Source: a virus
Taxonomy: Duplodnaviria > Caudoviricetes
Length of the DNA stretch: 64,000 bases
Reading direction: 5' to 3' (one strand)
IMG/VR virus record: IMGVR_UViG_3300021400_000095
Positions 1 to 64,000 of the stretch are shown piece after piece. The notes under the pieces were generated by a model, which had not been told where the DNA came from, did no database searches, and saw only the letters and a list, made by a program, of their open reading frames with translations. The position numbers and the translations under genes are program-made. Numbering within the stretch: the first letter of the stretch is position 1; each line of letters begins with the position of its first letter.

Positions 1-295
1 TTGCATCATAATAACCAGTAAATTCATAAGCAAATCCTATCCCCCTAAATGTTTTTTCAAAACAACAACTTGTTCTATGTTGTTCATATACCCAATCAAC
101 TAACATGTAATCAACTATTGAACTATCTCTTTGATACTTTATATATTTACCCTCCAAATCATTCAAAGCATATTTTTTTAACTGTAAATTTATGATTTTA
201 TCATGTATATCATGTAATTTTGAACTGACTTCAGTATACTCCTTCTCCAATTCCAATATTTTATTGTCAAGATTCTTGTTGTCTGTCTTCTTCAT
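1..295 (-). CDS. hypothetical phage protein (3'-truncated by window edge)
   Basis: Not in the ORF track. ATG at 293-295; I translated MKKTDNKNLDNKILELEKEYTEVSSKL...EFTGYYDA, open to position 1; overlaps the stop of the 267..716 gene. Confidence 0.7.
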   Translation of the reverse strand, partial: MKKTDNKNLDNKILELEKEYTEVSSKLHDIHDKIINLQLKKYALNDLEGKYIKYQRDSSIVDYMLVDWVYEQHRTSCCFEKTFRGIGFAYEFTGYYDA

Positions 296-716
296 TGATA
301 TTTTCCTCTTCATTTTTTACTTCTTTTTTCTTGGTTTTTGGCTTTGCCTTATAAACAAATTCATAATTCTTTAATCTTGAAATTGGTATTGTTTCATCCA
401 TGAATATATCCTGTAATTCAAGTATCTTTTCCTTTAATAATTTGGCCCTTTCTTGGGCTGTTGTCATCTTTTCTATTGTATAATCAATTGCATCAAAAAT
501 CTTTTCAAAACCAACTGCCATTTCAGCACAAAAATAATATGTCTCATTATCCTTTGCTACTGAAACACCAAATTTTTCTTCAACATCCTTACTTACAACC
601 CATTTGTTGGGAAATATGACCATAATATATATTATGTTGTCATTGCCAACTTCCTGCACTTGCATCCCTTTAAAATAAGGCTTTATTTTCTCTATTCTGT
701 TTCCAATATCAGCCAT
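267..716 (-). CDS. hypothetical phage protein, C-terminal coiled coil
   Basis: 149 aa ORF, preceded by a TATATTTG element. Confidence 0.8.
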   Translation of the reverse strand: MADIGNRIEKIKPYFKGMQVQEVGNDNIIYIMVIFPNKWVVSKDVEEKFGVSVAKDNETYYFCAEMAVGFEKIFDAIDYTIEKMTTAQERAKLLKEKILELQDIFMDETIPISRLKNYEFVYKAKPKTKKKEVKNEEENINEEDRQQES

Positions 717-3850: not shown

Positions 3851-6800
3851 TTAATAATCACCTGCATCAAAAATTACTGTATCTGTACTATTTTCTAATG
3901 CAAGCACTCTTGTATTGAGGTTATTCATTGCTGCTGAAATTACTTTACCATCAAGGTCAATCTCATCCTTTGTATAGAAATTTTCAGTTGCATATGAAGC
4001 AACATCACCACTTGTGACTAAATTAGCAGTTGCAGTTGCAATTGCAGCATCAGTTTGACCACTTGTGTAATATCCACTTAAATCAACCTGTCCTGAATTA
4101 CCACTAATGACAGCAATCTTGTTATTAAGGTCATTCAATGCCGTTGAGATAACAAATTCATCATCAATCCATTGCTCTTTTGTAAGGAATTTGTCATCAG
4201 CCTCTTCTTTAGTATAAACTGAGCCAGTAACACTTTCTTCAATTTCACCAATCCTGTCATTGAGGTCATTTATTGCAGCAGCAATCACCTCTTCCTTAGG
4301 ATTAAGGAAGTCATATGTTACATAGTATTCAGTGTTAGCTGAAAGTTGATTAAGTTTGCTGTTAATTGCATTGTCAGCACTCTGTCTTTGGCTTCTTTCA
4401 TTATTAATTGCACCTGTCAACTCTTGTCTAAGGCCATCAAGTTGGTCACTTACATCAATATCAGCAATTAACTCATCCACTTCTTCTTTAGTATAGACAT
4501 CACCACTGATATTTTGTTCAAGGGTTTCAAGTCTTTCATCAAGGTCATTTAATGCAGCAGCAGTTACTCTTTCATCTTCAACAATAACTTTTTTAAGAAC
4601 AGTTGCATCAACTGCTTTTTTAGAAGGATTTGATTCATCCATTGTAACTGCTGAAAATTCAGCAACAGTTTGGATTAAATCAATATCAGATGATGAGCCA
4701 CTTAATTCAATAATTCTTTCATTTAAATCATTTAAAGCAGCTGCAATTACCTCAGAATCATCATCAATTTCTTCTTTGGTGTAGTAATTTGTCAAAGCAC
4801 TTTCAACATAATCTTCAACCCATACTTCAGTTGCATAACCACTAACAACAGGAATATCAGTTTTATCTGCTTTTCTATCATTAAGGTCATTTAAAGAAGC
4901 AGCAATTACTTTCTCAGCATTATCAATTTCTTCTTTAGTATAGTATTGGGTTAAAGCACTTTCAACATAATCTTGTGTTTCTGCTGAAGTCCAATATGCT
5001 GAAAGGTCAACTTGTCCTGAATTACCACTTAATTCAATAATTCTTGCATTTAAATCATTTAGAGCAGCAGAGACAACTTCTTCAGAATCATCAATTTCTT
5101 CTTTAGTATAGTATTCAGTTAAAGCACTTTCAATTTGTGTTTCAACATCACCACTTGTTGTATAGGTAGCACCAAGGTTAAAAGTAATTTGGTGGCCACT
5201 TACAGCAATATCAGTAACAGCATTACCATTACCTGTACTTGCAGAAGTTAATTGAGTTTCAGCAGTAAGAACTGTTCCAAGGTCAACAACACCTGTATTA
5301 GATACTGTTAAATCATCACCATTCATGGTAATACCAGTAACCAATGTACCTAATGCTGCTGTATCACCTGTAACTGTTTTATTGTTAAAAGTAATTGCAG
5401 AGACAAAATGCTTATTATCAATCTCAGTTTTGGTATAGTAATTATTTGGATTAAAGATATCAGTCAATGGAATTGCAATATCTTGTTTTCCAGCATCTGT
5501 ATTAAATGTAATTACTAAACTACCACCAGAGATGAGTACATTGTCAACCATTCCATCCTTAACAAAATTAGCACCATCAATGGTCATTGAAGTCAATGTA
5601 GTACCATTGTTTTTGAAATATATTTTCTTATCAGTACTATTCCATTCAGCAGAATCAGGATAAACATTTAAATCAGGTTTATTTTGGATAAATGCATCAC
5701 TTGTTGTTGCTGTTTCATTCCAATCAGCCTGAACATTAACCTCAGCACCTTCTTCAATACCTGCTAACTTGTTTTTCTCTGTGGTTGTATAATTATTGTC
5801 AGTATGGACATAATTTGCATCTTGAACATAATTTGAACCAAGATTTAAAACCTTGTTAGTTACTGTAACATTAGAACCATTAATGGTTGCACCTGTTACC
5901 ATATTGGTGTATGCAGTTGCACCTGAACTAGCATTATTTCTAATGGTAGTCAAATCATCAATTGCATCTTGTTTATTATTCCAATTAGTTCTTTCTTGTG
6001 CAGTAATGTGTGCAGTTGTATCACCTGTATGTGCAGTAAATGCAGATAAAGGTGTATAATCACTTAATTTCCTTGTTGAACCATCAGTAATATCATCTAA
6101 TGTAGAAGGAATTGTGATTGTTTTTCTTGTTGAAGAAACAGTAAGGTCACCATCTGTTGCAGTATTAGTTCCAGCAAGACTTTCAACATAAGTTATTGTT
6201 TTAGCAGTTTCAGCAGTAGCAGTACCATTATCAGCAATTAATTTATGTTTTGCATGGTCTGTTGTAACAACCAAATCAAGTTTACCATTAGTAATTGTCT
6301 GTGCACTACCATTTAAATCAACTGCTGTAACAACTGTACCTAAATCAGCAACTTTATTGGCCTTACTTACAGCAGAACCATTCATAGTTACACCTGTAAG
6401 CATGTCAGTATAAGCAGTTGCACCTGAACTAGCATTATTTCTAATGGTTGTTAGGTCATTAATTGCATCTTGCTTACCATTCCAAGTTGATTTTTCAGTG
6501 TCAGTAACTAATCTATGTGTTGCATCATCAGATAATTCTGATAATTGTGTAGGAACAGTAATATCAACAGATTTATCTGTTATTGTTTGTTCTGTTCCAT
6601 TTACTTTTACTTTTTCAATAACATTTACCTGTGCACCATTTTCAATACCACTTAATTTAGTTCTTTCTTCATCAGTAAAGTTGTTAATGGTTTTTCTTGT
6701 TGAATATAGATTCAAATTACCACTTGTTTTTGGTGAACCACTAAGACTGTCAACAATTGTTACTGTTTGTGCAGTGGTTTGACTTGTAGGTGTACCATCA

Positions 6801-10051: not shown

Positions 10052-12295
10052 TTAATTTACAAAAGTCATTCCTAATTCAGCAGTAATATTTACATTACCA
10101 TTTAATTCCCACCAATCACTAAGGTCAATTTCCTTACTTACTTTTGTTTGACTTCCAATATTATATCTAAGTTCAACTAGTTTACTTTCACTTGTATTTG
10201 CTTTGAAAAGTGTCATTTGTAAAATTACACTTGAACACATCCAATCAGTTTCATAAGTTCCTTCAAAATTAACACCAAAATCAATTGTTACTGTTGAAGC
10301 ATCTTTATTATATACTCTGAAGTTAAAAATGCCTTCACCTTTTGTGCCAACACTATCTTTTATGTCACCTTCAAAACCACAGGCAGCATAAATTGAACTA
10401 TCATCAGATGGTCTAAATATTAAGTCATTTGAACTAGTAGTATCAATAAGTGTTCCCTTACAACCTTCACCAACAGTGCAATCAACAAAACCACCAAAAT
10501 TTATTTCAAAATTACAAATATCATATGGTTGTGGTTGTGGTGCAGCAGTACTTCTTAAAACAATTGAACCATCATAGTATTGACTTAATTTTCTTCTTGT
10601 TTTTAAATATTCTCTTAACTCTGCATATTTCTCATCAAATGTTCCTGTTGTTGTACCTGTCCAATTAAGTGCTTCATCACCTGCATAATCTGGATTTGAA
10701 TGGAACTCAAAACATTTAAAATCACTATTAGATAATCTATTTTTAGTGAATGACCTTATATTAAGTGTTGTTAAATAAGATGGTAAACTATTGTATGTAT
10801 CCTGCTTAAGTTTTATTGCAAATGGGTCATTTTGTGTTTTGTAGATATATTGAGGATTAAAAATATTTACTTCATATGTTGTAGAATTTTGTGTAATACC
10901 TGATATTGTGAAATAGTCACCATCAGGCATCTGTTGTTTAACATCATCTTTATATATATTGATAGCAAATGCATTCAAGCCCTTTTGTGCTGCATATACA
11001 TTATAAGTAACATTATTATTAAGGTCTTTTACAACAATGTTACCATCCCTACCCATTAAAGCAGTTTCACCTGAGAAAACACCAACAGTAACATTTACTG
11101 CCTGACTTGTTGAACCTGTTGTTGGACTTACTGTTGCCCAACTTGGGCTTGATGTTATTTGCCAATTGTGGCCAATTGTATCTGTGATTTGGAATGATAG
11201 TGTTCCACCTGTGTATTCAAATGTTCTTAATTCACCAACACTGAACACACCTGCTTCTTGTGAGCATGTTATTGTTGTTGTTCTATTATTTGTCACATCC
11301 TTAACAACAAAATTACCTGACCTTGCATCTGTTGTTTGTGTTGCTGTTAATGTAACAGTTGCATTTCCTGTACCAGCAGTAACACTTGCACTAATCCAAC
11401 TTGGTAAATTTTGTATTTGCCAACTGAAGCCATTAGGATTGGTAATAGTCATAGTCTTTGAACCACCTGTATTTGAAAAACTAAATGAGGTTGGGTTAAC
11501 ACTGAAACCATAACTTGCTGCATTTTGTACAACTGATGTTGTTGCTGTAACAGTTGGATAATTAGTACAAGATGCTGTGATTACATGTGTTACAGGATTT
11601 ATGCCAGTATTAGCAGGAATTGTAAATGTTCCTGTTTTAGTTGTTTTTGTTTGGTTACCATACTTGACAGTCACAGCATCAACATTTGATGTTACTGTAT
11701 ATGACATACTTGTTGCAGTGGAAGCAACAGGGGTTGGTGCTGTAATTGAAATTGTTGGGGCTACTGCACTTTGTGTAATAGTAAATGTTTTAACAATACT
11801 ACCACAAGTAACAGTAATTGTAGCAGTTCTACTTGTTGTTCCTGTAAAGTTAGAAATTGTTATTGTTTGTGACAGGTCACCTGTACCAGCAGTTGTTGGT
11901 ACAGATACCCAATTAGCATTAGTAGTAATAGTCCAATTACTATTTGAGGTGATTGCTAAAGTACCATTTCCACCACCACTATCATATGTATCTGGTGTAA
12001 GTGTTGCTGTTAATGTTCTTTGTGCTGGTGTAACTGAACTCCAAGTAAGTGCTGTAACAGTATATAATTTATTACCAACCATGACATCTTCTGATTGGTA
12101 TGTGATTTTAGATGTATCAATTGCAGTACCAACATCAGTTTGCCATTGTGTTGATGCTGTTACATATGTGTTTTTAACATTTACTGTAACAGGATTAGCA
12201 TTGTTATATTTCAATGTAACTGGTATTGTAACATCATAATTATGTTTTAATTTTAAATCCCATTTTCCTGTTAATGTTTGTGAAGCATCTGCCAT
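10052..12295 (-). CDS. BACON-domain (Ig-like) virion adhesin
   Basis: Multiple 'SN..WT.....W.S....G.G.......N.....R...I......TV.Q' BACON-type repeats; Thr-rich. Confidence 0.8.
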   Translation of the reverse strand: MADASQTLTGKWDLKLKHNYDVTIPVTLKYNNANPVTVNVKNTYVTASTQWQTDVGTAIDTSKITYQSEDVMVGNKLYTVTALTWSSVTPAQRTLTATLTPDTYDSGGGNGTLAITSNSNWTITTNANWVSVPTTAGTGDLSQTITISNFTGTTSRTATITVTCGSIVKTFTITQSAVAPTISITAPTPVASTATSMSYTVTSNVDAVTVKYGNQTKTTKTGTFTIPANTGINPVTHVITASCTNYPTVTATTSVVQNAASYGFSVNPTSFSFSNTGGSKTMTITNPNGFSWQIQNLPSWISASVTAGTGNATVTLTATQTTDARSGNFVVKDVTNNRTTTITCSQEAGVFSVGELRTFEYTGGTLSFQITDTIGHNWQITSSPSWATVSPTTGSTSQAVNVTVGVFSGETALMGRDGNIVVKDLNNNVTYNVYAAQKGLNAFAINIYKDDVKQQMPDGDYFTISGITQNSTTYEVNIFNPQYIYKTQNDPFAIKLKQDTYNSLPSYLTTLNIRSFTKNRLSNSDFKCFEFHSNPDYAGDEALNWTGTTTGTFDEKYAELREYLKTRRKLSQYYDGSIVLRSTAAPQPQPYDICNFEINFGGFVDCTVGEGCKGTLIDTTSSNDLIFRPSDDSSIYAACGFEGDIKDSVGTKGEGIFNFRVYNKDASTVTIDFGVNFEGTYETDWMCSSVILQMTLFKANTSESKLVELRYNIGSQTKVSKEIDLSDWWELNGNVNITAELGMTFVN

Positions 12296-12308
12296 ATTAA
12301 TATAATAT

Positions 12309-13100
12309 TTAAATTTCTAATTCTTCATCATTTTTTAAATCTATATCATTAGTATTTTCTTGGTTTAATGAATTTTCTTCTAAACTATTTGAATCTGAGG
12401 TCATTGCAAACATGTTGTTTGATGGTGTAAATGTTAGTGATATTCTTAAATATTCACCACCAGGAATAAAATCTTCTTTAGAACTATATATTAATCCTGC
12501 ATATGCTTGCATATCACCACTACTATAACTACCATAGTCAACTTTCATACTAAAAAAGCCATCACCTGTTCCTGTTGATTTAGTAAGATTTGTAATAGTA
12601 ATTGTAATATCTATATCAGTTGTTGTTTGTGATGGATTTAAAACAACATCCATATCATAATAATCTTCTCTAATAGAATCTTCAAGATGTGCAGGATGAG
12701 TATCACCCATGCCATTATAACTCTCTATTGTTATCATAAGGTCAGCAGTACAATTATCAAAATTATAACCCCTAACATCACATGGAACTATGCCTGTTAT
12801 TCCAGGTTGTACATTTGCACCTTGTGTTACTGTCCAAGCACAAGTAATTGTTGCTGTACCATCATATCCAGCAGTTGCATTTGTTGTTCCTGTAAGTGAA
12901 AGTGTTCCTGTTCTGCTTGTGTAACTACCATTTTCTTTAACACCAAGTATAAATTGTGCAGCCTGTCCTGAATAATTTTGTGTTCCACCTGTGACTTCAA
13001 AAAAATCAGGACAAGTATAATCTATTTTACCATTTTGTGGTAATGAATTTATACTAAGTAAAAAGGTTGTTTTATTTTTTGGTATATTAATTGTATCCAT
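12309..13100 (-). CDS. BACON-like domain protein
   Basis: ENGSYTSRTGTLSL...WTVTQGA pattern. Confidence 0.6.
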   Translation of the reverse strand: MDTINIPKNKTTFLLSINSLPQNGKIDYTCPDFFEVTGGTQNYSGQAAQFILGVKENGSYTSRTGTLSLTGTTNATAGYDGTATITCAWTVTQGANVQPGITGIVPCDVRGYNFDNCTADLMITIESYNGMGDTHPAHLEDSIREDYYDMDVVLNPSQTTTDIDITITITNLTKSTGTGDGFFSMKVDYGSYSSGDMQAYAGLIYSSKEDFIPGGEYLRISLTFTPSNNMFAMTSDSNSLEENSLNQENTNDIDLKNDEELEI

Positions 13101-13117
13101 TTAAAAATAAAAATTTA

Positions 13118-14920
13118 TTATGTTATTTTTATTTGAACTGAAGAATTATCAGCACTATAGTTGTAATCATGGTCAATTTCATGATAATTATCACTTGCAT
13201 TATATTTTGCTGTAAATGTAACTTTCTGTCCAAGTCTTAGAGGCATTTCAGATGATGAACTACTTCCATATGATATTTTACATGTCAAGTTACTTGGCAT
13301 TGTTGTAGCACTTACTAGTTCAAATTCATATGTAACCTGTGTTTGGCCACTGTTGGCTTCATTAAGAAGTGCCAAAACTCTTGTACCCAAACTTGAATTT
13401 GTCATAGCACTTGTAACAATATCCAAATAATGGGTTTCACCTAATGCTGATATAGTTCTAAATTTAAATAAAAATCCATATCTTGCAGGTACAACATTGA
13501 AAACAATGTTACCATCAATAATTCCATGATTACCTGTTTTTGTGTTTTGATATACTGTTATTGCACTCTCTGTATAAGTAAAATCATCACCATTTTTCTT
13601 TACAATATTAAATGCACCTTCTCTTGTATCATAACCATCACTAAGTGTATATGCACTCATAACAACAACTGTATCACCTACACCTGATGTTGGTTTTGCA
13701 TATAACCATGCTGGTTTATTCTTTATGCTCCATTGATAATCACCTGCATAAATATTAAAGTTAACTGGACTACCATTAAAGTTTAAAATTACCTCTTCAG
13801 GGTCATGTGCAATATATGTAATATATGTTGAAGTAAATCTTGGTGTTTGAAGTGCCTCTCTTGCTGCTTGTGATACATTTATTGTCTGATGAGTATTACC
13901 ATGTGTTGTCTCATTTACAACAAAACTACCTGTTCTAATACTGCTGTTAGGATTTTGGCCAGCTGTTAATGTAACTGTTGCATTTCCAGTACCAGCAGTT
14001 GTACTTGCACTAATCCAACTTGGTAAGCCTGTAATGTTCCAACTGAGGCCATTAGGATTATTAATGGTTATTGTACTTTGACTACCACCTGAAGCAAAAT
14101 TAAGACTTGTTGGACTAACACTGAATACATATCCAGCAGCATTTTGTACAACTGATGTTGTTGCTGTAACTGTTGGATAATCAGTACAAGATGCTGTGAT
14201 TACATGTGTTACAGGTGTTAAACCTGTATTTGCAGGAATAGTAAAACTACCTGTTTTAGTTGTTTTTGTTTGATTACCATATTTAACAGTCACAGCAGTC
14301 ATGTTTGATGTAACTGTATATGATATACTTGTTGCTGTTGCTTCAATAGGTGTTGTGGATGATATTGAAATTGTTGGGACAAGTGCATTTTGTGTAACAG
14401 TAAATGTTTTAACAATTTCACCACAGGTAATTGTAATTATACCTGTTCTATTAGTTGTACCTGTATAATTTGCAATTGTTATTGTTTGTGATAAACTACC
14501 ATCACCAGACATTGTTGGTACAGATATCCAATTAACATTAGTAGTAATAGTCCAATTACTATTTGAGTTAATTGCCAAAGTTGCTGTTCCACCTGTATTA
14601 TTAAATGTGGTTTGTGAAAGTGTTGCAGTTAATGTTCTTTGTACAGGAATAACTTCAAGCCAATTGATTTTATTTACTATATATGTTTTTGTTTCATCAG
14701 AAACTTCCTCTGTTTGTTCAAATGTAATTCTATTTGTATCAATTGCAGTACCAACTTCAGTTCTCCACTCAGTTGATGCTGATACATATGTATTACCAAC
14801 TTCCAATGAAACAGGATTAGCATCATCATATTTCAGTACAACAGGTATTGTTATACCATCATAGATGTGCTTTAATTTCACATTCCATTTTCCATTTAAT
14901 GTTTGTTCTGTACTAGCCAT
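13118..14920 (-). CDS. BACON-domain virion adhesin, paralog of 10052..12295
   Basis: N-terminal ~350 aa closely similar to the paralog; different C-terminus. Confidence 0.8.
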   Translation of the reverse strand: MASTEQTLNGKWNVKLKHIYDGITIPVVLKYDDANPVSLEVGNTYVSASTEWRTEVGTAIDTNRITFEQTEEVSDETKTYIVNKINWLEVIPVQRTLTATLSQTTFNNTGGTATLAINSNSNWTITTNVNWISVPTMSGDGSLSQTITIANYTGTTNRTGIITITCGEIVKTFTVTQNALVPTISISSTTPIEATATSISYTVTSNMTAVTVKYGNQTKTTKTGSFTIPANTGLTPVTHVITASCTDYPTVTATTSVVQNAAGYVFSVSPTSLNFASGGSQSTITINNPNGLSWNITGLPSWISASTTAGTGNATVTLTAGQNPNSSIRTGSFVVNETTHGNTHQTINVSQAAREALQTPRFTSTYITYIAHDPEEVILNFNGSPVNFNIYAGDYQWSIKNKPAWLYAKPTSGVGDTVVVMSAYTLSDGYDTREGAFNIVKKNGDDFTYTESAITVYQNTKTGNHGIIDGNIVFNVVPARYGFLFKFRTISALGETHYLDIVTSAMTNSSLGTRVLALLNEANSGQTQVTYEFELVSATTMPSNLTCKISYGSSSSSEMPLRLGQKVTFTAKYNASDNYHEIDHDYNYSADNSSVQIKIT

Positions 14921-36202: not shown

Positions 36203-36209
36203 TTTTTTA

Positions 36210-37322: not shown

Positions 37323-37326
37323 ATTA

Positions 37327-39661: not shown

Positions 39662-40024
39662 TTACTTACTTAATATCTTGATGAATTTTTTAATTAGTAG
39701 CAATAAAGTCTTAAACAACATATCTATTGACTTGTGATTCATTATTTTAAACTTCAAATTCTGCCACCAAGTCAATGATACATAAATTTCACTGTTATTA
39801 TTGTCTTCCCTTCTTAACTGATACACATATTTATCAAACACCTTAACATTAAGGATATCAGTATATTTCACTTTATCAGTTCTATATATTTTATAAAAAA
39901 TGTTTGGCTTATTGCTAATATAATAGTTATTTCCTACTATTGTAATGGTGTTATTTTTATCATAAACTTCTAATGTACCATCTGCTTCATTAAGTTCATT
40001 AGCTTTTAAGTTCTTTATCTTCAT
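39662..40024 (-). CDS. hypothetical protein
   Basis: 120 aa ORF overlapping the stop of the ATP-grasp gene. Confidence 0.6.
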   Translation of the reverse strand: MKIKNLKANELNEADGTLEVYDKNNTITIVGNNYYISNKPNIFYKIYRTDKVKYTDILNVKVFDKYVYQLRREDNNNSEIYVSLTWWQNLKFKIMNHKSIDMLFKTLLLLIKKFIKILSK

Positions 40025-40865: not shown

Positions 40866-40866
40866 A

Positions 40867-43566: not shown

Positions 43567-43581
43567 GCAAATATATTTTAT

Positions 43582-43590
43582 TATAAATAT
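43582..43590 (-). promoter_or_regulatory. late-type motif ATATTTATA heading the glycan operon
   Basis: Shares the TATTTATA core with the structural-gene motif; 16 nt upstream of ATG and downstream of a terminator. Confidence 0.45.
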
Positions 43591-43605
43591 ATTTAAAATA
43601 TAACA

Positions 43606-43631
43606 AAAAACAAGCATAACTGCTTGTTTTT
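43606..43631 (-). terminator. intrinsic terminator after nrdG
   Basis: AAAAACAAGCA-taac-TGCTTGTTTTT. Confidence 0.75.
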
Positions 43632-45098: not shown

Positions 45099-47463
45099 TG
45101 TCAATATTGGTTATATCTGTGTATACTCTTGTCTTTTGCTCAATCTGTCTTCCATCTGACCAATTCTTAACCTTTGTTAAATAACCTATAATTCTATCCC
45201 AAAGGCTGACATTAGTACTTCCACAATGAGGGCATTTTTCAAATGGTTGTTTTGCAATAAAACCACAATTTTCACATTGGCAATTTGGAATGTTAAATGT
45301 TAGATATGAACATCCATTTTCAGCAGCATATTTTAGTATTTTCTCATATTGTGCTTTTGATAAGTGTGCATCAAGATTTAAATGTGCTGCACTACCACCA
45401 TCCAAATAATCACCAATATAGTTTTTGCCCATTAATCTAATCTTTTCAAAAACACTGAGATTTTCATTTGGTTTATAAACATAACTTGCATACAAATTAG
45501 TATCATTTGGAACCCAGTAACCATCTTCTTTATCCCAATTATAATTCTTTACTGCAAGTGATTCAGCAGGAACTTGTTCAGTATTAAAAGTAATTTTGTG
45601 CTTTTCATCTGTAACTTTATGTAAAGTATTTTGTTCCTTAATGTTACCAAAAATGTTTTGGCAGAATTTTGCATAAGCATCATTATCTGTACACTTTAAA
45701 CCAAGGAATTCTGCTGCTTGATTCAAACCATTTAAACCAATTGTTAAATACTGTTTGTTAAGGTCAATAAAACCAGCTTTATAAACAGGCAATAGGTTGG
45801 AATCATACATGTCCCATAATAGTTCATTATATGCAGTATGATATTTATAAACTCTTTCAAGAATTTTGTTTAAATATGATTTCAAACTACTATAATCTGA
45901 ATCAGAACCACTAAAAACAAAATCATTGTTCTTTTCCTTCCTTGAATTGAACCAATCCTGAGTAATTCTATTAAGATTTAATGTTATAACAGACTTAGAA
46001 CCTGTCTGTACACCAATATTACCATTAGTAAAGTTAAATTCTTTGGTTTGTATCTTGTTTTTTAATCTGCAACATGAACTGAGGCTGTCAACAGAATCAC
46101 TTATATAAGTAAAGAAACTATGACCTCTTGCATATTCCTCACAGACAAAATTAAACATTTCCTCATCTTCAAATTTTCCATCTTTATAAAGAAGTGTAAA
46201 AGATTCAACAGGGAATGTTAACAAACACTTAAGTCTTTCATTGTTAAACCACATCATGAACTCTTTTTCAACCCACTTAAGGCTTTCCCAATCAGGTTGT
46301 GTTCCATCAGGAAAATAGAAATTACCAAACATACCATCAAAGAATGGCTTATCAAAATAAGAAAAATTCACGAAGGCGGATTGATAACCCCTTGCTGCTG
46401 CTGGTTGAGAAATGGTATAAACAATTTGCTGCCAATATTGATGTATTTGTCCCTTTATTGTTCTTGTCCCATCACCAAATTTAAGTATATAGTTAGGGTC
46501 TTCTTTAATGTGTTCACAATAATCCTTTAATTCATCTTCAGTCAATGGTCTTTCACTTTCATAAACAAGTTCATCTCTTAATTTATTTAACTCATCACTA
46601 CCAAAATCATGTTCTGCAAGTTCTTTTACATTATTAGTCCAATAGTGTGATTCATTAAGTAACTTTCTTAGTTTATAACCAATTTTATAAAATGAATTTG
46701 ATTCTTTATAAAAATCATCACCCCATTCTTTCTTACAGAAATAGGTAAAATATAATAGAGATTCAGAAGTAGCAACAGCACCTGCAAATTGTGAAGAAAT
46801 TGCAAAAATAAGATTGCAATACATTCCACAATATGAATCAATATTCTTTGGTTCAGCAGAAAGACCACCAATGTTCTTAAGACCATTTGTTAAAAATGGA
46901 TACATTGTTAAAGAAACACAATATGGTGCAATTGCTCCAGCAAAAGAAGATTCATCATGTTTGTATATAATATGATTTTCCAAATCTTTTACATAATTCT
47001 TAGCATTAAAAGTAGGGTACAAATCTTTCAATTTACCCATTATCATTTTTCTGCTAATTTGAAGATTCTCTTCTTTGTGTATTTCAGCATTTAATACACC
47101 AATATTTTTGTTTGCAACATTTGAATTATCATCAATAGTTGCATTTGCTGTATTGGTTGCTTTCTTGTAATTATTAATAAAATTAATTTTTCTTTCTACA
47201 AAATTTTCAATCTCTTCTTTCTTGTTTTTTACTGACCTATATGCATTTAAAAGTCTATCATCTCTTTCACTAAACCTCTCTTCTAATTGCTTTCTAATTG
47301 AGGAACATAAAATGCCATCATATATATACAAACTATCAACAATTTCCTTTGCACATTCTGCATTACATTCAACACCAGCAGTATTAAAAACCTTTTTAAT
47401 AATATTTATCAACTTCCTTCTACTAAATTCCTCATAGGAGCCATCACTTTTTCTAACATCCAT
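45091..47463 (-). CDS. nrdD: class III anaerobic ribonucleoside-triphosphate reductase with N-terminal ATP cone
   Basis: VRKSDG..EEF, IYKHD, PYC, LTFPV, SCCRL, PAESLA, CxxC...CxxC, glycyl loop RIIGYL. Confidence 0.96.
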   Translation of the reverse strand: MDVRKSDGSYEEFSRRKLINIIKKVFNTAGVECNAECAKEIVDSLYIYDGILCSSIRKQLEERFSERDDRLLNAYRSVKNKKEEIENFVERKINFINNYKKATNTANATIDDNSNVANKNIGVLNAEIHKEENLQISRKMIMGKLKDLYPTFNAKNYVKDLENHIIYKHDESSFAGAIAPYCVSLTMYPFLTNGLKNIGGLSAEPKNIDSYCGMYCNLIFAISSQFAGAVATSESLLYFTYFCKKEWGDDFYKESNSFYKIGYKLRKLLNESHYWTNNVKELAEHDFGSDELNKLRDELVYESERPLTEDELKDYCEHIKEDPNYILKFGDGTRTIKGQIHQYWQQIVYTISQPAAARGYQSAFVNFSYFDKPFFDGMFGNFYFPDGTQPDWESLKWVEKEFMMWFNNERLKCLLTFPVESFTLLYKDGKFEDEEMFNFVCEEYARGHSFFTYISDSVDSLSSCCRLKNKIQTKEFNFTNGNIGVQTGSKSVITLNLNRITQDWFNSRKEKNNDFVFSGSDSDYSSLKSYLNKILERVYKYHTAYNELLWDMYDSNLLPVYKAGFIDLNKQYLTIGLNGLNQAAEFLGLKCTDNDAYAKFCQNIFGNIKEQNTLHKVTDEKHKITFNTEQVPAESLAVKNYNWDKEDGYWVPNDTNLYASYVYKPNENLSVFEKIRLMGKNYIGDYLDGGSAAHLNLDAHLSKAQYEKILKYAAENGCSYLTFNIPNCQCENCGFIAKQPFEKCPHCGSTNVSLWDRIIGYLTKVKNWSDGRQIEQKTRVYTDITNIDNE

Positions 47464-47630: not shown

Positions 47631-49067
47631 TTACTTTTTTGATTTATCTTTTTTCACTTCACCTTGGAGGAATTGAATGGTTTCAATAGTATTTCTATTA
47701 TTGATTTCTTCCTGTTCATCTTCCCATTGTTTAAAGGAATCAAGTTCTTCAACATCATCACATCTAATAATACTTTTTCCATTATCAAAGTAGATGTTTT
47801 TGAACAATTTAGCACCTTTACCTGACCTATTTTTAAGTAATGCAAGTGTTGCTCTATTTTGTTCTCTATCTTCAAGTGTTCTTGCAATTGAAATAATAAC
47901 TTGTGCAACCTGTCCCTTTTTAATTGACCCACCAGCCTTATCAACAGTAACAATATCTGATACAATACTATCTTTATTACCTTGTGTTGGAATCCATATT
48001 GCAATATCAAGTTCCTTTGCAATAGTTTCAAGTTTTCTCATTGTAATTCCTTCTCTTGTCCACTCAGTATCAGTTGCAAAGCCACCTTTTTCATGAGCAA
48101 GACATTCAAAATAATCAATTGTTACCAAGTCAGGTTTAAAACCTCTATTTGTTAATTTAACAATGAAGTTTTTAATGTCAGTTGCTGACATTTCACCTGT
48201 CTTAAATGATTTAAGCCTAAGGTTTTTATTAATTTCATCAATATCTGGATGGTGTGAAAGAATTTCAAGGACATTTTCTTTATCTTCATCACTAAGTCTC
48301 TTGAATTCCATTGCTTCCTTATCAGCAAGTCTTGAAAAATGTTTTCTTGTTATATCAACATCATCATCCTCAAAATAAATTTGCAATGTCTTCCACCCAT
48401 GAGCAGCAGCAGATGATGCAAATGCTGTAGTAAGTGTTGTCTTGCCAGTCCCTAATGGTGCTATAATAAGACCAATTTTACCCTTATCAAGACCACCACC
48501 AAGTACATCATCAAGTTTATCAATACCTGTTGGAATTGACACAGTATAGTCAGCAGAAAGGGCTTTTTCTTTCAAATCAAGGATTGAATAACCATAGTCA
48601 TCAATTGCACTTGGAGCAATTGCTTCTTCAATCATTTTTTGACATTCATCAAACTGTTCAATATCACCACTCCCTACTTTTTCAAGCATTTTATTTGCTG
48701 CCTTAATTAGTTTTTGTTGCTTGAAAAATTTGAGGGCATTCTCCTTTACAGTAGAACAACCCTCAGTGTCCATTTTTTTAAATTTATCAATCAGTTCTTC
48801 ATATTCTCTAATTTGTATTTCATCAGATGCTTTTGACCTAAGGATAATATCAATTGTTTCATAAGATGGAACAACATTTTCTTTATTATAATAATCTTTA
48901 ATTGTTCCAACAAATGTTTTTAGTAGGATATCAGTGAAACAATTTTGGTCAACAATATTAGAGATTTCATTAAAAAAATGATGGTCTTCAATCAAGTATT
49001 TTACAAGTTTATATTGGAAATCAATACCAAGATAGCCCAATGTACTTTTATCAATACTTTTTCCCAT
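47631..49067 (-). CDS. dnaB: replicative DNA helicase (DnaB/T4 gp41-like)
   Basis: IPTGIDKLD..LGGGL, Walker A APLGTGKT, IDY, IWIPTQ, LKNR.G. Confidence 0.9.
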   Translation of the reverse strand: MGKSIDKSTLGYLGIDFQYKLVKYLIEDHHFFNEISNIVDQNCFTDILLKTFVGTIKDYYNKENVVPSYETIDIILRSKASDEIQIREYEELIDKFKKMDTEGCSTVKENALKFFKQQKLIKAANKMLEKVGSGDIEQFDECQKMIEEAIAPSAIDDYGYSILDLKEKALSADYTVSIPTGIDKLDDVLGGGLDKGKIGLIIAPLGTGKTTLTTAFASSAAAHGWKTLQIYFEDDDVDITRKHFSRLADKEAMEFKRLSDEDKENVLEILSHHPDIDEINKNLRLKSFKTGEMSATDIKNFIVKLTNRGFKPDLVTIDYFECLAHEKGGFATDTEWTREGITMRKLETIAKELDIAIWIPTQGNKDSIVSDIVTVDKAGGSIKKGQVAQVIISIARTLEDREQNRATLALLKNRSGKGAKLFKNIYFDNGKSIIRCDDVEELDSFKQWEDEQEEINNRNTIETIQFLQGEVKKDKSKK

Positions 49068-52060: not shown

Positions 52061-53128
52061 TTATTCAATGTCTTTTATCCAACCTGAATCAAAATTATCA
52101 CAATAAAAATTAATTGTTTTTCTAATTCCTTCTTCAAAAGTTACCTTTTGTTTCCATCCCATTGATTCAAGTTTTGAACAATCAATTGCATATCTTAAAT
52201 CATGTCCCTTTCTGTCTTCAACATATGTTATTAATGATTTATATTTTTTAATCCACATTGGTTCAGGGTTGACAATGTATTTTTTATTATCATTCAATTG
52301 TCTTTGATGTGCAAATATTTCAATAATAGTGTTTATCATGTCAATGTTGCTCATTTCATGATTTCCACCAACATTGTATGTTTCACCAGCAACACCATTA
52401 TGAAAAATAAAATCAATTGCACTACAATGGTCTTCAACATATAGCCAATCTCTAATATTTTCACCCTTTCCATAAACAGGAATTGGCTTTTCACCCATAA
52501 GATTAAATAAGACCACAGGTATTAATTTTTCAGGATACTGATATGGCCCATAATTATTTGAACAATTTGATATTGTAGTATTCATACCATATGTATCATG
52601 AAATGCTTTTACAAAATGGTCTGAACTTGCCTTACTTGCTGAATATGGTGAATGTGGGTCATATTTTGTATTTTCTGTAAACTTTTCTTTACTATCCAAT
52701 TCCAATGAACCATATACTTCATCAGTTGAAACATGATGGAATCTATGCCCCTTCAATGTACCAAACTTTTTTTCCCAATAATTCATTGCTATATTTAACA
52801 AACAATGTGTTCCATGAACATTTGTCCATTCAAATACATAAGGGTCAAGAATACTTCTATCAACATGACTTTCAGCAGCAAGATGAATAACATCTGTAAT
52901 CTCATATTTTTCAAAAGTTTCTTTTAACTTTTTATCATCACAAATATCACCCTTAATAAAAACATAGTTTTCTAAATTCTCAATATCTTTAAGATTATTT
53001 GGATTACCTGCATATGTCAATTTGTCATAATTCACAATCTTATATTCAGGATATTTTCTCAGTAAGTAATGAATTAAATTACTACCAATAAATCCACAAC
53101 CACCTGTTACTAAAATATTTTTCTTCAT
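52061..53128 (-). CDS. rfbB: dTDP-glucose 4,6-dehydratase
   Basis: VTGGCGFIGSN, DKLTYAGN, HLAAESHVDRSI, STDEVYG, PYSASKA, NCSNNYGPYQ.PEKLIP, GHDLRYA. Confidence 0.97.
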   Translation of the reverse strand: MKKNILVTGGCGFIGSNLIHYLLRKYPEYKIVNYDKLTYAGNPNNLKDIENLENYVFIKGDICDDKKLKETFEKYEITDVIHLAAESHVDRSILDPYVFEWTNVHGTHCLLNIAMNYWEKKFGTLKGHRFHHVSTDEVYGSLELDSKEKFTENTKYDPHSPYSASKASSDHFVKAFHDTYGMNTTISNCSNNYGPYQYPEKLIPVVLFNLMGEKPIPVYGKGENIRDWLYVEDHCSAIDFIFHNGVAGETYNVGGNHEMSNIDMINTIIEIFAHQRQLNDNKKYIVNPEPMWIKKYKSLITYVEDRKGHDLRYAIDCSKLESMGWKQKVTFEEGIRKTINFYCDNFDSGWIKDIE

Positions 53129-53176: not shown

Positions 53177-54379
53177 TTACATTTCATCCTCTTCAGTTTC
53201 AGTAAAGACAATATCATCCTTTTCAGAAACAACTACATTTTCATTGTTGCTCTTGCTAATATTATTTAACTGCTTAAGAATATCAGCAACATGTTCTTTT
53301 CTATATGCATCAACTACATCTTTTTCAGTACTAATCATACCATGTGGTGTACAAATAATATCACCTTCATATGTCACTGTATAAGGATTTGGTAATTGAT
53401 TCTTCATGACCTTAATTTTGGTTTGAATTGCATAATTATAACTTAAACCCTTGGATTGTGCTGTCAATTTCTTAATTGATGATTTTAATTGCCCACCAAG
53501 AAGAATAATTAACCTTGATGCATAGAATATTGAATTTCCACCCTTTAACTGAATGCTTGGAGGTCCAACAGGATTTGTCATTGAATCAAGCCATACTTTA
53601 TTAACTAAAATCATTGTATTTGAATATGGTGATGACACTTTTCTTGACCTTGGAATTCTATCATTAACAATCCCATTAAAGGCAACACTAATTGCAGCAG
53701 CATCCCACATTGCATTGGATGATTTTGAATTATAACTCTTAAAACTTGAAATACTTCCAACAGAATCCCATAAGAAAACAAAACCAGCATCAACTTCACC
53801 ATTATCTTGTGCATCAAGTAACTCATTTATTGAATATGCAATGTCTTCAATAACTGCAATTTTTCTTCCCTTTGCAGTTTCCTTACCTGTTGAATAGTCA
53901 TTTTTCCCATATCTTTCAGCAAGAAGAGCATTATTGAAGTAAATGAAATTACCATCATAAGCCACAATACCATTTTCTTTTACAATTTCAACTTCACCAG
54001 TTTCTTCATTAACTTTTTCAACATCAATATCACCATATATTGGTGTTGCTTCCATTCCCATGTCAATTGCATATTTAAAATCAAAATTGTTTTCTGTATC
54101 ATAAATAACAGGAATATAACCTTGTCTTTGTGCAGCAACAATTGCATGATTTATTAATGTTGATTTTCCTGTATTTGAATGACCAATAATTGTTGTAACA
54201 TATGAAATTGGAATACCAGGAAGTCTTAGACTTTCCTTATATGCATCAGGCATTTCAAGCCATTCCATTGGCTTATCTGCATTACTTGATTCCTTAGTTG
54301 CAACAAGACCCATCTTTGCCTTAAATTCAGATATTGTTGGCTTTTTCTTTATCTCTTTCTTTTTTAATGGTTGTGCCAT
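53177..54379 (-). CDS. recA: RecA/UvsX-like recombinase
   Basis: Walker A GHSNTGKS, YDTE, Walker B FLWDSVG, KGG.SI.YAS, KN. Confidence 0.85.
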   Translation of the reverse strand: MAQPLKKKEIKKKPTISEFKAKMGLVATKESSNADKPMEWLEMPDAYKESLRLPGIPISYVTTIIGHSNTGKSTLINHAIVAAQRQGYIPVIYDTENNFDFKYAIDMGMEATPIYGDIDVEKVNEETGEVEIVKENGIVAYDGNFIYFNNALLAERYGKNDYSTGKETAKGRKIAVIEDIAYSINELLDAQDNGEVDAGFVFLWDSVGSISSFKSYNSKSSNAMWDAAAISVAFNGIVNDRIPRSRKVSSPYSNTMILVNKVWLDSMTNPVGPPSIQLKGGNSIFYASRLIILLGGQLKSSIKKLTAQSKGLSYNYAIQTKIKVMKNQLPNPYTVTYEGDIICTPHGMISTEKDVVDAYRKEHVADILKQLNNISKSNNENVVVSEKDDIVFTETEEDEM

Positions 54380-55197: not shown

Positions 55198-55806
55198 TTA
55201 TTCATCATCATTATTTTTAGCATAAAATTTATTACCTGTTTTTTCAAAATAACATTTTCTGCACAAAGCAACATATCTATCATCACCACCAACTTCAATT
55301 TGATTTCCATCAGTTACAATTTCCTTATTGGCATTGATTCTTGCATTAAACATTGTGTTATTACCACAATAACATATTGATGGTAATTCTTGAATTTCAT
55401 CAGAAATCTCAATCAATCTTTTTGAACCAGGAAATAACTTGGTTTTGAAATCTGTTTTTAATCCATAACAAATAATATTAATTTTTAATATATCTGATAT
55501 TGCAGCCAGTTCATCAACTTGTTTTTCAGTTAAAAATTGTGCCTCATCAACCAAAATATATTTTAATTTACTATTTGAAATTTGTAAATATTTTGAAATT
55601 AAATAAAATATGTTATCATCAACTGAAATCATTACACATTCTCTCTTACCAAGTGCTCTTGAATAGACAACATTTTCACCATCCCTATCATCAATTTTGC
55701 TTTTTAATGTTAAAAATGGTATTTTATGTTCTTGAAAACTATATGCTGTTGCTAAAAGATGTAGTGATTTACCAGAACTCATTGTTCCATAAATAAACTT
55801 CAACAT
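55198..55806 (-). CDS. tdk: thymidine kinase
   Basis: GTMSSGKS, VDEAQF, CYGLKTDF, F.GS, Zn-binding C.C...CRKC; ATG at 55806. Confidence 0.96.
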   Translation of the reverse strand: MLKFIYGTMSSGKSLHLLATAYSFQEHKIPFLTLKSKIDDRDGENVVYSRALGKRECVMISVDDNIFYLISKYLQISNSKLKYILVDEAQFLTEKQVDELAAISDILKINIICYGLKTDFKTKLFPGSKRLIEISDEIQELPSICYCGNNTMFNARINANKEIVTDGNQIEVGGDDRYVALCRKCYFEKTGNKFYAKNNDDE

Positions 55807-55824
55807 ATAAAAAACAATTTTTAT

Positions 55825-55853
55825 ATGCAGTGCCATATTATATGACACTGCAT
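55825..55853 (-). terminator. hairpin between SSB and tdk
   Basis: ATGCAGTG.CATA-tta-TATG.CACTGCAT. Confidence 0.6.
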
Positions 55854-55860: not shown

Positions 55861-56865
55861 TTAGAATGGAAGTTCTTCTTCATTATCTTCAAGAACAATT
55901 GTTTTCTTCAATTCTTCTACCTTCTTATTTACTGGCTTTTCTTGAACTGAATCTTCTTTAAGTTTCCTATCAGCATCTTCAACTTTCTTTTCATTGTCTA
56001 TCTGCTCATTCTTCTTTCTAGCATCAAACTCAGCCTTGTCTATCCACTTATTGTTTTCCTTATCCCACCAAGGATATTTTTTCTGTGCAACAAGTGTCAA
56101 ATAATCATAATCCTTTGGTGTGAAAACATCTTGCCATTTCTTTTTATCATAAATCCATTCTCTCATGGTTTCTTCTGATGTAGAAAGTGGAGTAATCTCA
56201 TCATCACAATCAATTCTTGGTGCTGAATTACCAGGTCTAATTGTTACAATCAAATCTCTACCATGAAAAATATCAAATATATTTTCATCAGGTTCACCCT
56301 TCTCTCTTGACTTCTGCAACTTCTTATTAAAGAGTTTCATAATTTCATTATAAGGGTCTGACTTGTCTTGTCTTAAATTAAATTTCCAAAACTTCACACC
56401 ATCTTCTTCATGACCTCTTTCAATACATCTGACAATTACTGATTCATAACTCTTATTTGCAATTGAAATTTCAACAAAATTCTTTTTCTTAAGAGGGTCT
56501 TTTTCATCCTTTGCTAACTCATATGCTTTCTTGTTTAATTCACAAAACGGACAATCTGAACCAAAAGTATCATGGTCAATATCAGTGTTCTTCTTTAAAC
56601 AAAGATATGACTTCCACTCTGTTCCAAAAATTTCCTTTGGTACTTTTACATTGTGAAAATGAGTTAAGACAAATGGATTTCCTGTTTCCAAATCCATTGG
56701 AAGAAGTCTGATTGTAAGTTCTTTTTCTGTTTCTCCTTCTGCAAGTCTTGTGTTAAGATAATTTTTTGTGCTGAATACACTTTGTGTTTTTGCTTTTCCC
56801 TGATTAATACCAATTCCAGTTACAGATTCAGGGGTAATGTTTGGTAAATTAACTAAGTTACCCAT
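55861..56865 (-). CDS. single-stranded DNA-binding protein (T4 gp32-like)
   Basis: IRLLP, H...C...CPFC Zn site, VKFWKF, FD...GRDL, acidic tail ending EEELPF. Confidence 0.8.
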   Translation of the reverse strand: MGNLVNLPNITPESVTGIGINQGKAKTQSVFSTKNYLNTRLAEGETEKELTIRLLPMDLETGNPFVLTHFHNVKVPKEIFGTEWKSYLCLKKNTDIDHDTFGSDCPFCELNKKAYELAKDEKDPLKKKNFVEISIANKSYESVIVRCIERGHEEDGVKFWKFNLRQDKSDPYNEIMKLFNKKLQKSREKGEPDENIFDIFHGRDLIVTIRPGNSAPRIDCDDEITPLSTSEETMREWIYDKKKWQDVFTPKDYDYLTLVAQKKYPWWDKENNKWIDKAEFDARKKNEQIDNEKKVEDADRKLKEDSVQEKPVNKKVEELKKTIVLEDNEEELPF

Positions 56866-61700: not shown

Positions 61701-64000
61701 CAATTTTCAGTATCACTAAACATTGGTACACCATCAATAATTGTCCATTGGCTTTGCTTAATACTCTTTGTTTTTGACTTTGCCTTTTCAACACCATTGT
61801 TTATTGATTGATTACTTTTAGTATTAATTGACAATTCATTTTTAGTGTCTCTTGCCAATTTTTCACCAAAAGCCTTTCTAACATTAAGTGCTTCAGCCCA
61901 TGCAACATACTTTTTAATATCATTAATTTCACTCCTTGAATTATTTCTGAAAGAATATATTGTATAGTAACATCTTATCATAAATGTTGCCATTATTAAA
62001 TTTGCTTTATCTATGTCACTATAACTACTTCTATTTGCAATAATTTCATATGGGTTTTTTTGTTTGAAAATAATATCATACAATGTTGCAGGAATAAACT
62101 TTTCAATAGGTTCTTCTTCATTCCTATTTTTTGTATTTCCCTCCAACTCTTTTATTTCTTCCAAAACTTTTTGTGCATTTTCAACATAACAATGTGCACC
62201 CTTAATCAAGGCTTTAGTGAACTTTGTTTCTTCAATTTGTGTACCAGTTACATCTTCAGGCCAAACAGCAACTTGTCTTGTTGAATCACCTTCTTGTATT
62301 GAAGAAATACAAAGTGGATATGGTGGTACATATTGATATGATTTTGGAATATCTGTCAAATCATATCCACCAAAATTAGAAATGCTTCTTATATTTTTAT
62401 TTCCATCAAGTTGTTTCTTAATCTGATTCAATGCTGTATAGTAATGATAAATAAAACATTCCAAATGAGCAAATATCATTTTGAAAACATTATAAATGCT
62501 GATTTTAAAACCAAGATTTGCTTCAATGGTTTCAACCATTACTTCATTTATTAAACTTTCTTGCTCATCCTTATTTTTTTCTAATGAATTTAAAATTTCA
62601 TCAATACTATAAAGTACTTCTGTACTTAAAACATGAATGTAAATTGGTTTTGTCTTATCACTAATTTTATCAATAGCATCTTTAAATCTTGGTGATAAAG
62701 TAATGCTTTCTGAATTATCTGCAAGAACATAATTCTTTTTTGATTGATAATTGGTAAAACTTTCTGCAATATTAATATTATTAAAATTAATGTTGTTATT
62801 AGTATATTTATATGCAACACCATTTCTAACAACATATTTACACAACATGTGTTTTGTGCTATTGCTATTTAATTCATTTTCATTAATTTTAATATCACTT
62901 ATCATGTCAATCAATGTTTCATATTGACTGTATCTTTCTGAAAATGCTTCTAAACTATGATAATATTTATATAATGTTTTAACATCATCAGTTGTTAAAC
63001 TATCTGAATATGAAATAAAAGCAATTTCTTTATTAAATCTATCTTCATCTAATACAATACTATTATTTATATCCAAACTTCTTGGAAAAGTGTTTTTTAA
63101 TTCTTGTAGTTCTCCCTTACATTTTTCAATATATATGTAATTGTTTTTCTTTGCAATGTCTAATTTATATTGTTCAAAATTAGTTATTGATGTTTTTATT
63201 CTTTTTGTGAATTCTGAAAGTGTTATCATTTCAGCACCATTATCAAAAACAAAATCACCACTTGCAACTCTTGAATTCCAATATGCCATATCATCAATAT
63301 ATGGAGCAACTGCTGTATATATAAATGGTATTTCAGTATATATACCATACATGTTACCAATAAACTCCATATCAACAACAGAATTACCTGTTGTAGCATC
63401 AAAATTTGAATTAAATTTTGACATCTTCAAATTATATGTTATTGGCTTGCCATAAAAACCCTTTACTGTTAACTTAAATACTGGACATGGACATGAAAAC
63501 ACTGCTTTAAAAAAAGAACCACTATCAATTTGTGTAATCTTACTATTATTAACAGCACCTTGTTCCCTTTCCATCTTCTCTCTTTCAAGTGTTTGTTGTA
63601 ACCCCTTTTCTTGTGGCATGAACAATGAAGCACCTCTAACATCAACAAATTTAATATTAACAATTGGATAAAACCATTGCTGATAAGAAACATTTATTGA
63701 TTCAATACCAAGACATTCTTTATTTCCCCTACCAACATTTGTTGATGAAATGTCTGTAAAACTTGTTGTTAAATATCCATTCTTGTCTGTTTCACCACCA
63801 CTACCACCAAAAAAATTAATAGTACCATTACTTGATGAATATGTTAATACATGCCCTGTTTTATCAGCACATGAATATCTATCTGGTATGGTCACTGTTA
63901 AATCAACAGCCATACAGTAATTTTCATAAGAGTGTAAAATGGCATTATCAGGTAATGTCAAATATGGATTATTTGGCTCAATATAAGCAAATCTGCCAAT
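58766..64000 (-). CDS. baseplate hub-like protein with C-terminal CHAP/amidase-like domain (5'-truncated)
   Basis: Frame stays open past 63961 to the window edge (IGRFAYIEPNNPY); hub motif C.VEMLGN....P...F......GAYMI.SV.H.I.....T.F.G.R; terminal HCARW...GDVV.Y...HAQFY.G...W.CD. Confidence 0.7.
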   Translation of the reverse strand: MGRFAYIEPNNPYLTLPDNAILHSYENYCMAVDLTVTIPDRYSCADKTGHVLTYSSSNGTINFFGGSGGETDKNGYLTTSFTDISSTNVGRGNKECLGIESINVSYQQWFYPIVNIKFVDVRGASLFMPQEKGLQQTLEREKMEREQGAVNNSKITQIDSGSFFKAVFSCPCPVFKLTVKGFYGKPITYNLKMSKFNSNFDATTGNSVVDMEFIGNMYGIYTEIPFIYTAVAPYIDDMAYWNSRVASGDFVFDNGAEMITLSEFTKRIKTSITNFEQYKLDIAKKNNYIYIEKCKGELQELKNTFPRSLDINNSIVLDEDRFNKEIAFISYSDSLTTDDVKTLYKYYHSLEAFSERYSQYETLIDMISDIKINENELNSNSTKHMLCKYVVRNGVAYKYTNNNINFNNINIAESFTNYQSKKNYVLADNSESITLSPRFKDAIDKISDKTKPIYIHVLSTEVLYSIDEILNSLEKNKDEQESLINEVMVETIEANLGFKISIYNVFKMIFAHLECFIYHYYTALNQIKKQLDGNKNIRSISNFGGYDLTDIPKSYQYVPPYPLCISSIQEGDSTRQVAVWPEDVTGTQIEETKFTKALIKGAHCYVENAQKVLEEIKELEGNTKNRNEEEPIEKFIPATLYDIIFKQKNPYEIIANRSSYSDIDKANLIMATFMIRCYYTIYSFRNNSRSEINDIKKYVAWAEALNVRKAFGEKLARDTKNELSINTKSNQSINNGVEKAKSKTKSIKQSQWTIIDGVPMFSDTENWLYSLIKDGKNTYLPMNVEFRSNRNDVSMGKHIDSSKYICINDSQLNKDTFVSINNTDFLEKYRTEIGAAETYGLKEGKFDVYTKVFEKKYKHEDTISGVFGDNLSVKIIDVNEKKNKPKISTAKNFLELHNTNAYLYTSNNANNGNFYFGIVNGEYERFGVFKGNDVYNANKQKPLAKAYLFLFSLPINSSYAKACIETNYGNANKWLLLREGAHYWREDESGEPINLGEYGKGFNGEKSLVPILRRVGLFGKLNNTLYLDKVNHTKNDYITFNELNGLDKDFQVSEARRNYLKKLFVNFATISNIFKDFYLLESTQEDSDDYNKLQRNLLNLLSSEDIFIDYAQPIENGKDKKIKDNDVFDCYSSFLKNLATIYEEKNIEVTNDIDSEDIIVSTGLVNDKDIKLSTYLTLKDLYDKFFCNINSDIFVIGNENSEFKKFRFIDSFYNDISKKLIVNGNYLLDIFRDTVYQSEGAMNTPVKLNMKKSVYEVMADICEHNGLTFLALPQEFGLSGVDNIEKMFSPQSLQDVYTNRHANDGCYIGLYSYKPSERLDIEETEYGYKNDSFDITEGALPSALQTINGDDLIPAFAVTYAKQNQSFFSNISLSTASQQTTEHSITATMDIAGRGQTDGPRESTLYGQDLYRVYAGYSYQCSVEMLGNMQVMPLMYFQLNNIPMWHGAYMIISVEHNIVANNITTKFTGVRVNRNAMPFVNSDYIFANENGEMNYVNITTSDPKARLDELISQGFSQEQAIEIVNNNGVYGLGNIKAKPKMSPENLLTAKGRVTEAVKKVFSCGHAITSSGSYVHHCARWTFRLAQCFVQPDFDPTCEVSAGGNPNQIGLWNHLTKIGYKEETNVVLNKDEIKKYLANSNNFNYGDVVLYYNSTQAYGTAGAKMHAQFYTGDAYLSSVPGYSSNINVVNEKPEMEKQCKSGWSCDRLNNYGSTFVYGNDNKYPPTDPKYNSWVLKVFRAPELKA

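Follow-up and report, generated by a model that had tools for sequence, protein, structure and literature searches.

The window analysed here, the 64,000-nt stretch of the IMG/VR record IMGVR_UViG_3300021400_000095, is a segment of an uncultured jumbo myophage genome of ~353 kb, of which it makes up ~18%, and its tail, baseplate, glycosyltransferase and replication modules (Table 1) are written almost entirely without the dinucleotide CG. Its proteins recur, identical letter for letter, on contigs of 352.7-352.8 kb from sheep assemblies, and the phage was detected in runs of 13 studies, mostly of cattle and sheep gut. A search of deposited phage records returned no close relative, with the best helicase match among them at 26%. 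BACON-domain proteins are typical of Bacteroidota phages; from the two encoded in the window, together with the bacterial matches of its rfbB-like gene, the host is probably a member of the Bacteroidales, a placement made to the level of order.

The window contains five CG dinucleotides where 1,322 are expected (observed/expected ratio, o/e, 0.004). Recounting reproduced exactly the number and positions reported in the initial annotation, which had put the expectation in the order of a thousand, and the abundance of the reverse dinucleotide noted there is borne out by an o/e of 1.00 for GC. The loss was also described as independent of reading frame, and CG o/e is indeed 0.000 for CGN codons, 0.004 for NCG codons and 0.006 at C|G codon junctions. 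None of the 793 Arg codons is CGN, where the codon usage of G001, the nearest of the complete relatives, would predict ~95, and intergenic DNA holds no CG against 52 expected. With all frames and the intergenic DNA empty, the constraint lies at the level of DNA rather than of codon usage, and it extends, as claimed, to the host-like genes glf, rfbB and the thymidine kinase gene. The 79,256-bp contig that includes the window has the same five CGs and nothing more (o/e 0.003), and the ~116 kb of the genome read, polymerase region included, has 15 (o/e 0.006, or ~0.1 CG per kb) and no GATC. Further sheep and cattle assemblies of the same phage give CG o/e values of 0-0.023, so the loss is not an assembly artefact. 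We conclude that natural selection has purged ~99.5% of CG from this genome.

Table 1. Features of the window and of the candidate gene locus. Coordinates refer to the window unless a locus is named.
Feature	Position	Strand	Remarks
CG-free, GATC-free jumbo myophage segment	1..64000		tail, baseplate, glycosyltransferase and replication modules
Residual CG	4142..4143		Thr ACG codon in gene 3851-7456; differs among strains
Two BACON-domain proteins	10052..14920 (10052-12295, 13118-14920)	-	
Baseplate wedge subunit, contractile tail	31233..33170	-	
UDP-galactopyranose mutase, glf	36210..37322	-	CG-free; complete relatives G001 and G005 without homolog
Residual CG	40094..40095		GGC|GCT codon junction in TupA-like ATP-grasp gene; not in strain L075
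Anaerobic ribonucleotide reductase NrdD	45091..47463	-	
Residual CG pair	46371..46378 (46371, 46377)		codon junctions in nrdD, six bases apart; also in strain L075
DnaB-like replicative helicase	47631..49067	-	marker used to collect the clade; CG 0
rfbB-like NDP-sugar dehydratase	52061..53128	-	top bacterial matches Bacteroidales; CG-free; missing in 98%-identical strain L075
RecA/UvsX-like recombinase	53177..54379	-	
Thymidine kinase	55198..55848	-	CG-free
gp32-like single-strand binding protein	55861..56865	-	
Residual CG	56548..56549		Pro CCG codon in gp32-like gene; also in strain L075
P0413, 331-aa divergent DEDDh/TREX-fold gene	L621:13647-14642	+	beside dUTPase, polymerase region

Purifying selection against the bare CG dinucleotide

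The loss of CG reflects purifying selection on the DNA, and neither deamination nor codon bias. This follows from the emptiness of the CGN class, from the purging of variants that create CG, and from the absence of CG in mobile genes as well as in intergenic DNA. Among 1,033 differences between strains, taken from assemblies, T/C variation before G occurs nine times where 118 are expected (13-fold too rare), and A/C variation before G does not occur where ~17 are expected. Genes present in some strains only, including an IS605 TnpB, an IS200 element, an intein endonuclease, an SNF2-methyltransferase and rfbB, are CG-free or nearly so. At the 84 positions where the outgroup phage G005 has a CGN Arg codon, the window lineage has AGA at 37, AGG at 13, Lys at 14, His at two and Cys at two. 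Since deamination of CGN yields His, Gln, Cys, Trp or a stop codon, the CGN class should shelter CG under methylation, and it is instead the emptiest.

These observations bear directly on the first of the models proposed in the initial annotation, in which a CpG methyltransferase drives deamination. In its wider form, a CG-specific C5 methyltransferase of phage or host would remove CG through deamination, mutational load or methyl-directed restriction. The TG and CA excess that was to support deamination is present (TG 1.52 and CA 1.44 on the plus strand; strand-symmetric 1.43, against about 1.2-1.3 in near kin), and the window lineage is richer than its kin in NCA and in T before G; the excess nevertheless cannot separate the models, since selection predicts it as well. 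We set it aside as a test of deamination, as one-time conversion and continued flux would differ by ~10% at such AT-rich sites. Other points in favour of methylation are that the selection on each site is weak enough to be within reach of mutational load, that the lean of surviving sites towards CCG (see below) is seen in some methylase-carrying phages too, and that the genome read so far covers ~116 of ~353 kb.

Known carriers of such enzymes behave differently. Five phage records with SssI-like methylases, whose specificity is assumed, halt at CG o/e 0.15-0.25 and keep CGN, as CGT, at 3-8% of Arg codons, and the lowest value among 80 viral loci with SssI-like methylases is 0.13; two of the five records do have stretches down to 0.03-0.06. 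The present genome lies at o/e 0.003-0.006, with CGN as its emptiest class, even though both products of CGN deamination are non-synonymous. No C5 methylase (PF00145) was found in the ~116 kb read. The same search of 55 clade records met unrelated enzymes in three fragments only and none in complete genomes. None of the top 120 SssI-like proteins lay on a contig of a CG-free lineage, and searches of the protein database, of 401 Bacteroidales genomes and of IMG/VR for SssI/MpeI-type proteins gave none that could be tied to these lineages. Deamination as the driver is thus disfavoured, and a role for CG methylation in any of these forms seems unlikely. Within the methylase-carrying set, G463 and G464 (L602-L608) show 10-kb blocks at CG 0.03-0.10 that alternate with blocks at 0.3-0.4, and a 159-kb GATC-free phage (G461, L581) encodes an 821-aa SssI-like methylase with a long insert and has a CG o/e of 0.25 and a GCGC value of 0.07.

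What is read appears to be CG itself. All NCGN classes stand at o/e 0-0.03, with the non-palindromic ACGA and ACGC as empty as ACGT, GCGC and CCGG, and because every context is empty the target is the bare dinucleotide and not a set of restriction sites with a CG core. The 44 distinct surviving CG sites occupy nine of the ten NCGN classes, with palindromes no scarcer than the others and CCG contexts mildly enriched (28/44 against 47% expected). Codon usage, AT drift or the sum of ordinary 4-6-bp CG-core restriction sites could be considered in their place, given that the clade avoids many palindromes and that its background CG o/e is near 0.5. The three empty frames, the empty intergenic DNA, the normal frequency of GC and the equal emptiness of non-palindromic contexts speak against this, as do relatives of equal or lower G+C with CG o/e at 0.40-0.57. 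The depletion goes far beyond that of other AT-rich phages. As a sole cause this explanation is refuted, and we consider it very improbable in general.

Surviving CGs number ~1 per 8 kb, and several are common to different strains. Their persistence indicates that each CG is costly without being lethal, and, judged by the ratio to CG-keeping kin, each site would carry a scaled selection coefficient of ~3-5. Residual sites shared between strains also exclude an efficient, always-active double-strand cutter as the agent.

Distribution of the CG-free state and of other avoided words

The ~200 related loci fall into two sets by CG o/e: three lineages do not exceed 0.045, and all others lie at 0.33-1.1. 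The CG-free lineages are A (the window and its strains), B (L005, L081 and L083) and C (L086). Their closest helicase relatives, at 73-77% identity, form group D, which includes the complete 363-kb genome G001 (CGN 410/3408 Arg codons) and has CG o/e values of 0.40-0.64. In a three-gene tree, lineages A to C cluster with group D (Shimodaira-Hasegawa-like approximate likelihood ratio support 99), and the tree does not separate their internal order. Independent origins of the CG-free state, hinted at by the helicase tree, are unsupported in the joined three-gene analysis, with which monophyly of the CG-free lineages is compatible (approximately unbiased test, p=0.218). Probing IMG/VR with capsid, primase, sigma and ATPase sequences gave no more CG-free fragments, two of these searches returning sister-clade contigs only. 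A gene of ~240 aa between RecA and the exonuclease was rejected as a marker of the CG-free state, lineage B being without it.

Group D may itself be a revertant that lost CG and later regained it. At conserved Arg sites the share of CGN is 7.5% in G001 and 7-12% across group D (G001, G010 and G052), against 27-28% in the outgroup G005, while G001 has more NCG codons than G005 despite its low CGN. A return of fast synonymous CGs, but not of CGN codons, which require two steps, would give this pattern. The positions of CGN are weakly shared between group D and the outgroup, which calls for caution with this reading.

The same comparison bears on the proposal that CG was lost to evade animal CpG sensing through TLR9 in a gut setting. 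The cattle and sheep gut habitat would suit it, but the nearest relatives, from like ruminant assemblies, retain thousands of CGs (6,547 in G001), and 7,011 cultured human-associated phage genomes reach a minimum of 4 CpG per kb and a smallest total of 89 (10.1101/2025.05.15.652987), a minimum ~30-fold above the CG per kb of the present genome. We give this proposal almost no credence.

CG is not the only word that these phages avoid. In the window, o/e is 0 for GATC, CTGCAG, GGTACC and CTCAAG and 0.16 for AGCT, and GATC is at 0 in G001 (363 kb) and G005 (393 kb) as well. GGCC is normal in the window lineage and depleted in G001 and G005. The clade thus clears classical restriction sites completely and lineage by lineage. 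GATC is missing from nearly the whole clade (G001, G005, L001-L038) over a range of 26-48% G+C and is kept in L045, L056, L072, L371 and L391. A Dam-like methylase was rejected as the cause of this retention, D12 methylases being found in GATC-free genomes too, and a search of the phage for a DpnII-family GATC nuclease found none.

Gene content varies between strains. Window positions 33719-43617 form a strain-variable cluster of glycosyltransferases, glf, a TupA-like ATP-grasp gene and a pyruvyl-transferase, and the 98%-identical strain L075 has a different gene complement there; to the right of this cluster the contig carries an rmlC-like gene. The nrdD gene contains an intein in L075 (L075:11605-14445) and in L086 and none in the window. 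At L621:48-6839 the family-B DNA polymerase is encoded by two genes, split by a 295-aa open reading frame and a DUF723/DUF4379 homing-endonuclease-like gene with weak matches to Vsr and Mom. At L626:894-3551 a strain-specific, CG-free gene for an 885-aa SNF2 helicase-methyltransferase fusion takes the place of eight genes of other strains, and L625:4685-13080 holds an RNA repair cluster (RNA-ligase-like, HD/kinase, cyclic phosphodiesterase, CCA-adding-like enzyme and RlaP nucleotidyltransferase). In the related phages L076, L078 and L079, a gene for a TonB-dependent receptor of ~1,100 aa lies upstream of the 5'-3' exonuclease gene.

Candidate agents and known systems

The loss of CG is selective, independent of sequence context, switched on or off by lineage and tolerant of a few sites. 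The explanation we favour, with a probability of roughly 40%, is that it is driven by a host enzyme that reads bare CG and does not mark self by methylation. Such an enzyme would recognise CG in any context in the host cell and damage DNA there; it would most likely be a defence effector, for example an infection-triggered nuclease or a DNA-modifying toxin that prefers CG. An effector switched on by infection would need no self-protection and could act in proportion to the number of sites. If the cost rises with site number, or arises only in some hosts, ~1 CG per 8 kb could be tolerated. The phage lineage would then have recoded every site, as for GATC, CTGCAG and GGTACC, with Arg CGN becoming AGA or AGG, while relatives on hosts that lack the effector would retain or regain CG. 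We place the enzyme on the host side because the clade also purges classical restriction sites in a lineage-specific manner. A host defence keyed on a CG core, as the initial annotation had put it, survives in the form of a host effector; ordinary restriction sites with a CG core, even taken together, do not fit, non-palindromic contexts being equally empty.

Several points weigh against this explanation. The effector is postulated, the host itself is placed to the level of order, and infection-triggered effectors with short motif preferences enter the argument as general background. CG is at normal frequency in Bacteroidales DNA, and an SssI/MpeI-type methylase was absent from the 401 Bacteroidales genomes searched; together these make a classical CG restriction-modification pair unlikely in these hosts. 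The gene content considered covers about a third of the genome (~116 of ~353 kb). Finally, one phage gene, P0413, tracks the CG-free state in the records compared, which favours an agent encoded by the phage.

A phage-encoded nuclease, nickase or modifier directed at CG would destroy the DNA of host or competitor and spare its own unmodified, CG-free genome. We regard this as somewhat less likely than a host effector. The on/off state switches with phage lineage, as it would if the agent were a phage gene; host-type DNA is CG-rich, so that CG would be a good tag of non-self; and the revertant look of group D fits the loss of a gene. This corresponds to the phage-encoded model raised in the initial annotation, but the shared residual CGs leave no room for an efficient double-strand cutter.

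P0413 is the candidate for such an agent. It is conserved in ten lineage-A sequences, and a search run with a positive control gave no match to it among 50 clade records that keep CG, of which 13 are complete. The family comprises five clusters among 1.84 billion representatives. One homolog, P0440, lies on a 118,601-bp contig that may belong to lineage B, being equal in length to the longest contig of that lineage. Another, P0439, is matched, likewise by length, to a contig from beyond the A-D group, and this tempers the link of the family with the CG-free state. Foldseek matches the model of P0413 to TREX1/2 (E 2.7e-4 to 1e-3; template modelling score 0.44-0.51 by target), and a DnaQ-like fold is supported by Foldseek, with an atlas lead of 0.89. 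Of the residues typical of DEDDh enzymes (ExoI DxE, ExoII D, ExoIII H and D), D27 and H196 are invariant and D119 and D201 nearly so; the glutamate of ExoI is missing at +2, and E43 is invariant. The confidence of the model is modest, with a predicted local distance difference test score of 64.5, and A may be the sister lineage of B, in which case a gene common to both may be plain ancestry. DEDDh enzymes are 3'-5' exonucleases and are not known to have dinucleotide specificity, which counts against P0413 as a CG nuclease. That this DEDDh/TREX-fold enzyme is a new kind of nuclease that reads bare CG and destroys CG-rich bacterial DNA, so that CG vanished from the clade when the gene was gained and returned to group D when it was lost, seems to us a long shot, as does its role as agent of any phage-encoded mechanism.

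Bacteroidales infections probably involve a nuclease or DNA toxin, of phage or host, that reads CG and has yet to be described. Selection strong enough for the recoding of every CGN Arg codon implies that some activity in bacteria recognises bare CG and does so with no methyl tag of the usual kind. We found no description of one in the literature searched, nor did literature searches return any report of a CG-free phage. New in this case are a clade with an on/off state, population evidence for selection, a candidate gene and a group that has probably reverted. With complete genomes and both CG-free and CG-keeping sisters, the clade is a natural experiment, and a CG-specific nuclease, if it exists, would be useful as a tool enzyme.

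The nearest known counterpart is restriction-site avoidance (Rusinov et al. 2018, PMC6286503), in which selection likewise purges a word in all frames, as this clade does for GATC and CTGCAG. There the word is by definition a recognition site of 4-8 bp, whereas here it is the 2-bp CG, with a few survivors tolerated; we found no characterised restriction enzyme with bare-CG specificity. M.SssI, M.MpeI, Mhy1 and the under-representation of CpG in Mollicutes (PMC11282364; PMC13736764) share with our phage the bare CG target and the raised TG and CA. Depletion is 25-80 times deeper here than in methylase-carrying phages, and the CGN codons are gone. Mhy1 of Mycoplasma hyorhinis adjoins an HNH gene, End1, that has been proposed as its nuclease and not demonstrated as such (PMC13736764). 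In our data, the Mycoplasma hyorhinis locus L495:1153-3509 has a gene for an SssI-like methylase with one for an HNH endonuclease immediately after it, and the two are a candidate pair for restriction at bare CG.

Two further systems offer partial parallels. Phage T4 degrades host DNA with EndoII and EndoIV and spares its own DNA, which contains hydroxymethyl-cytosine. In both cases a large lytic myophage has DNA that would escape an activity reading cytosine sites, but T4 is protected by a modified base, and here protection would come from the absence of sites, with the nuclease a candidate only. The purging of sites argues against a general base modification of the phage DNA, and the thymidylate synthase matches of the relatives are canonical only. 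The suppression of CpG in vertebrate viruses, attributed to ZAP and TLR9, concerns the same dinucleotide and is also driven by selection. The gene content here is that of a bacteriophage and not of a virus replicating in animal cells; the host is bacterial, the depletion is two orders of magnitude deeper, and co-resident relatives have kept their CG.

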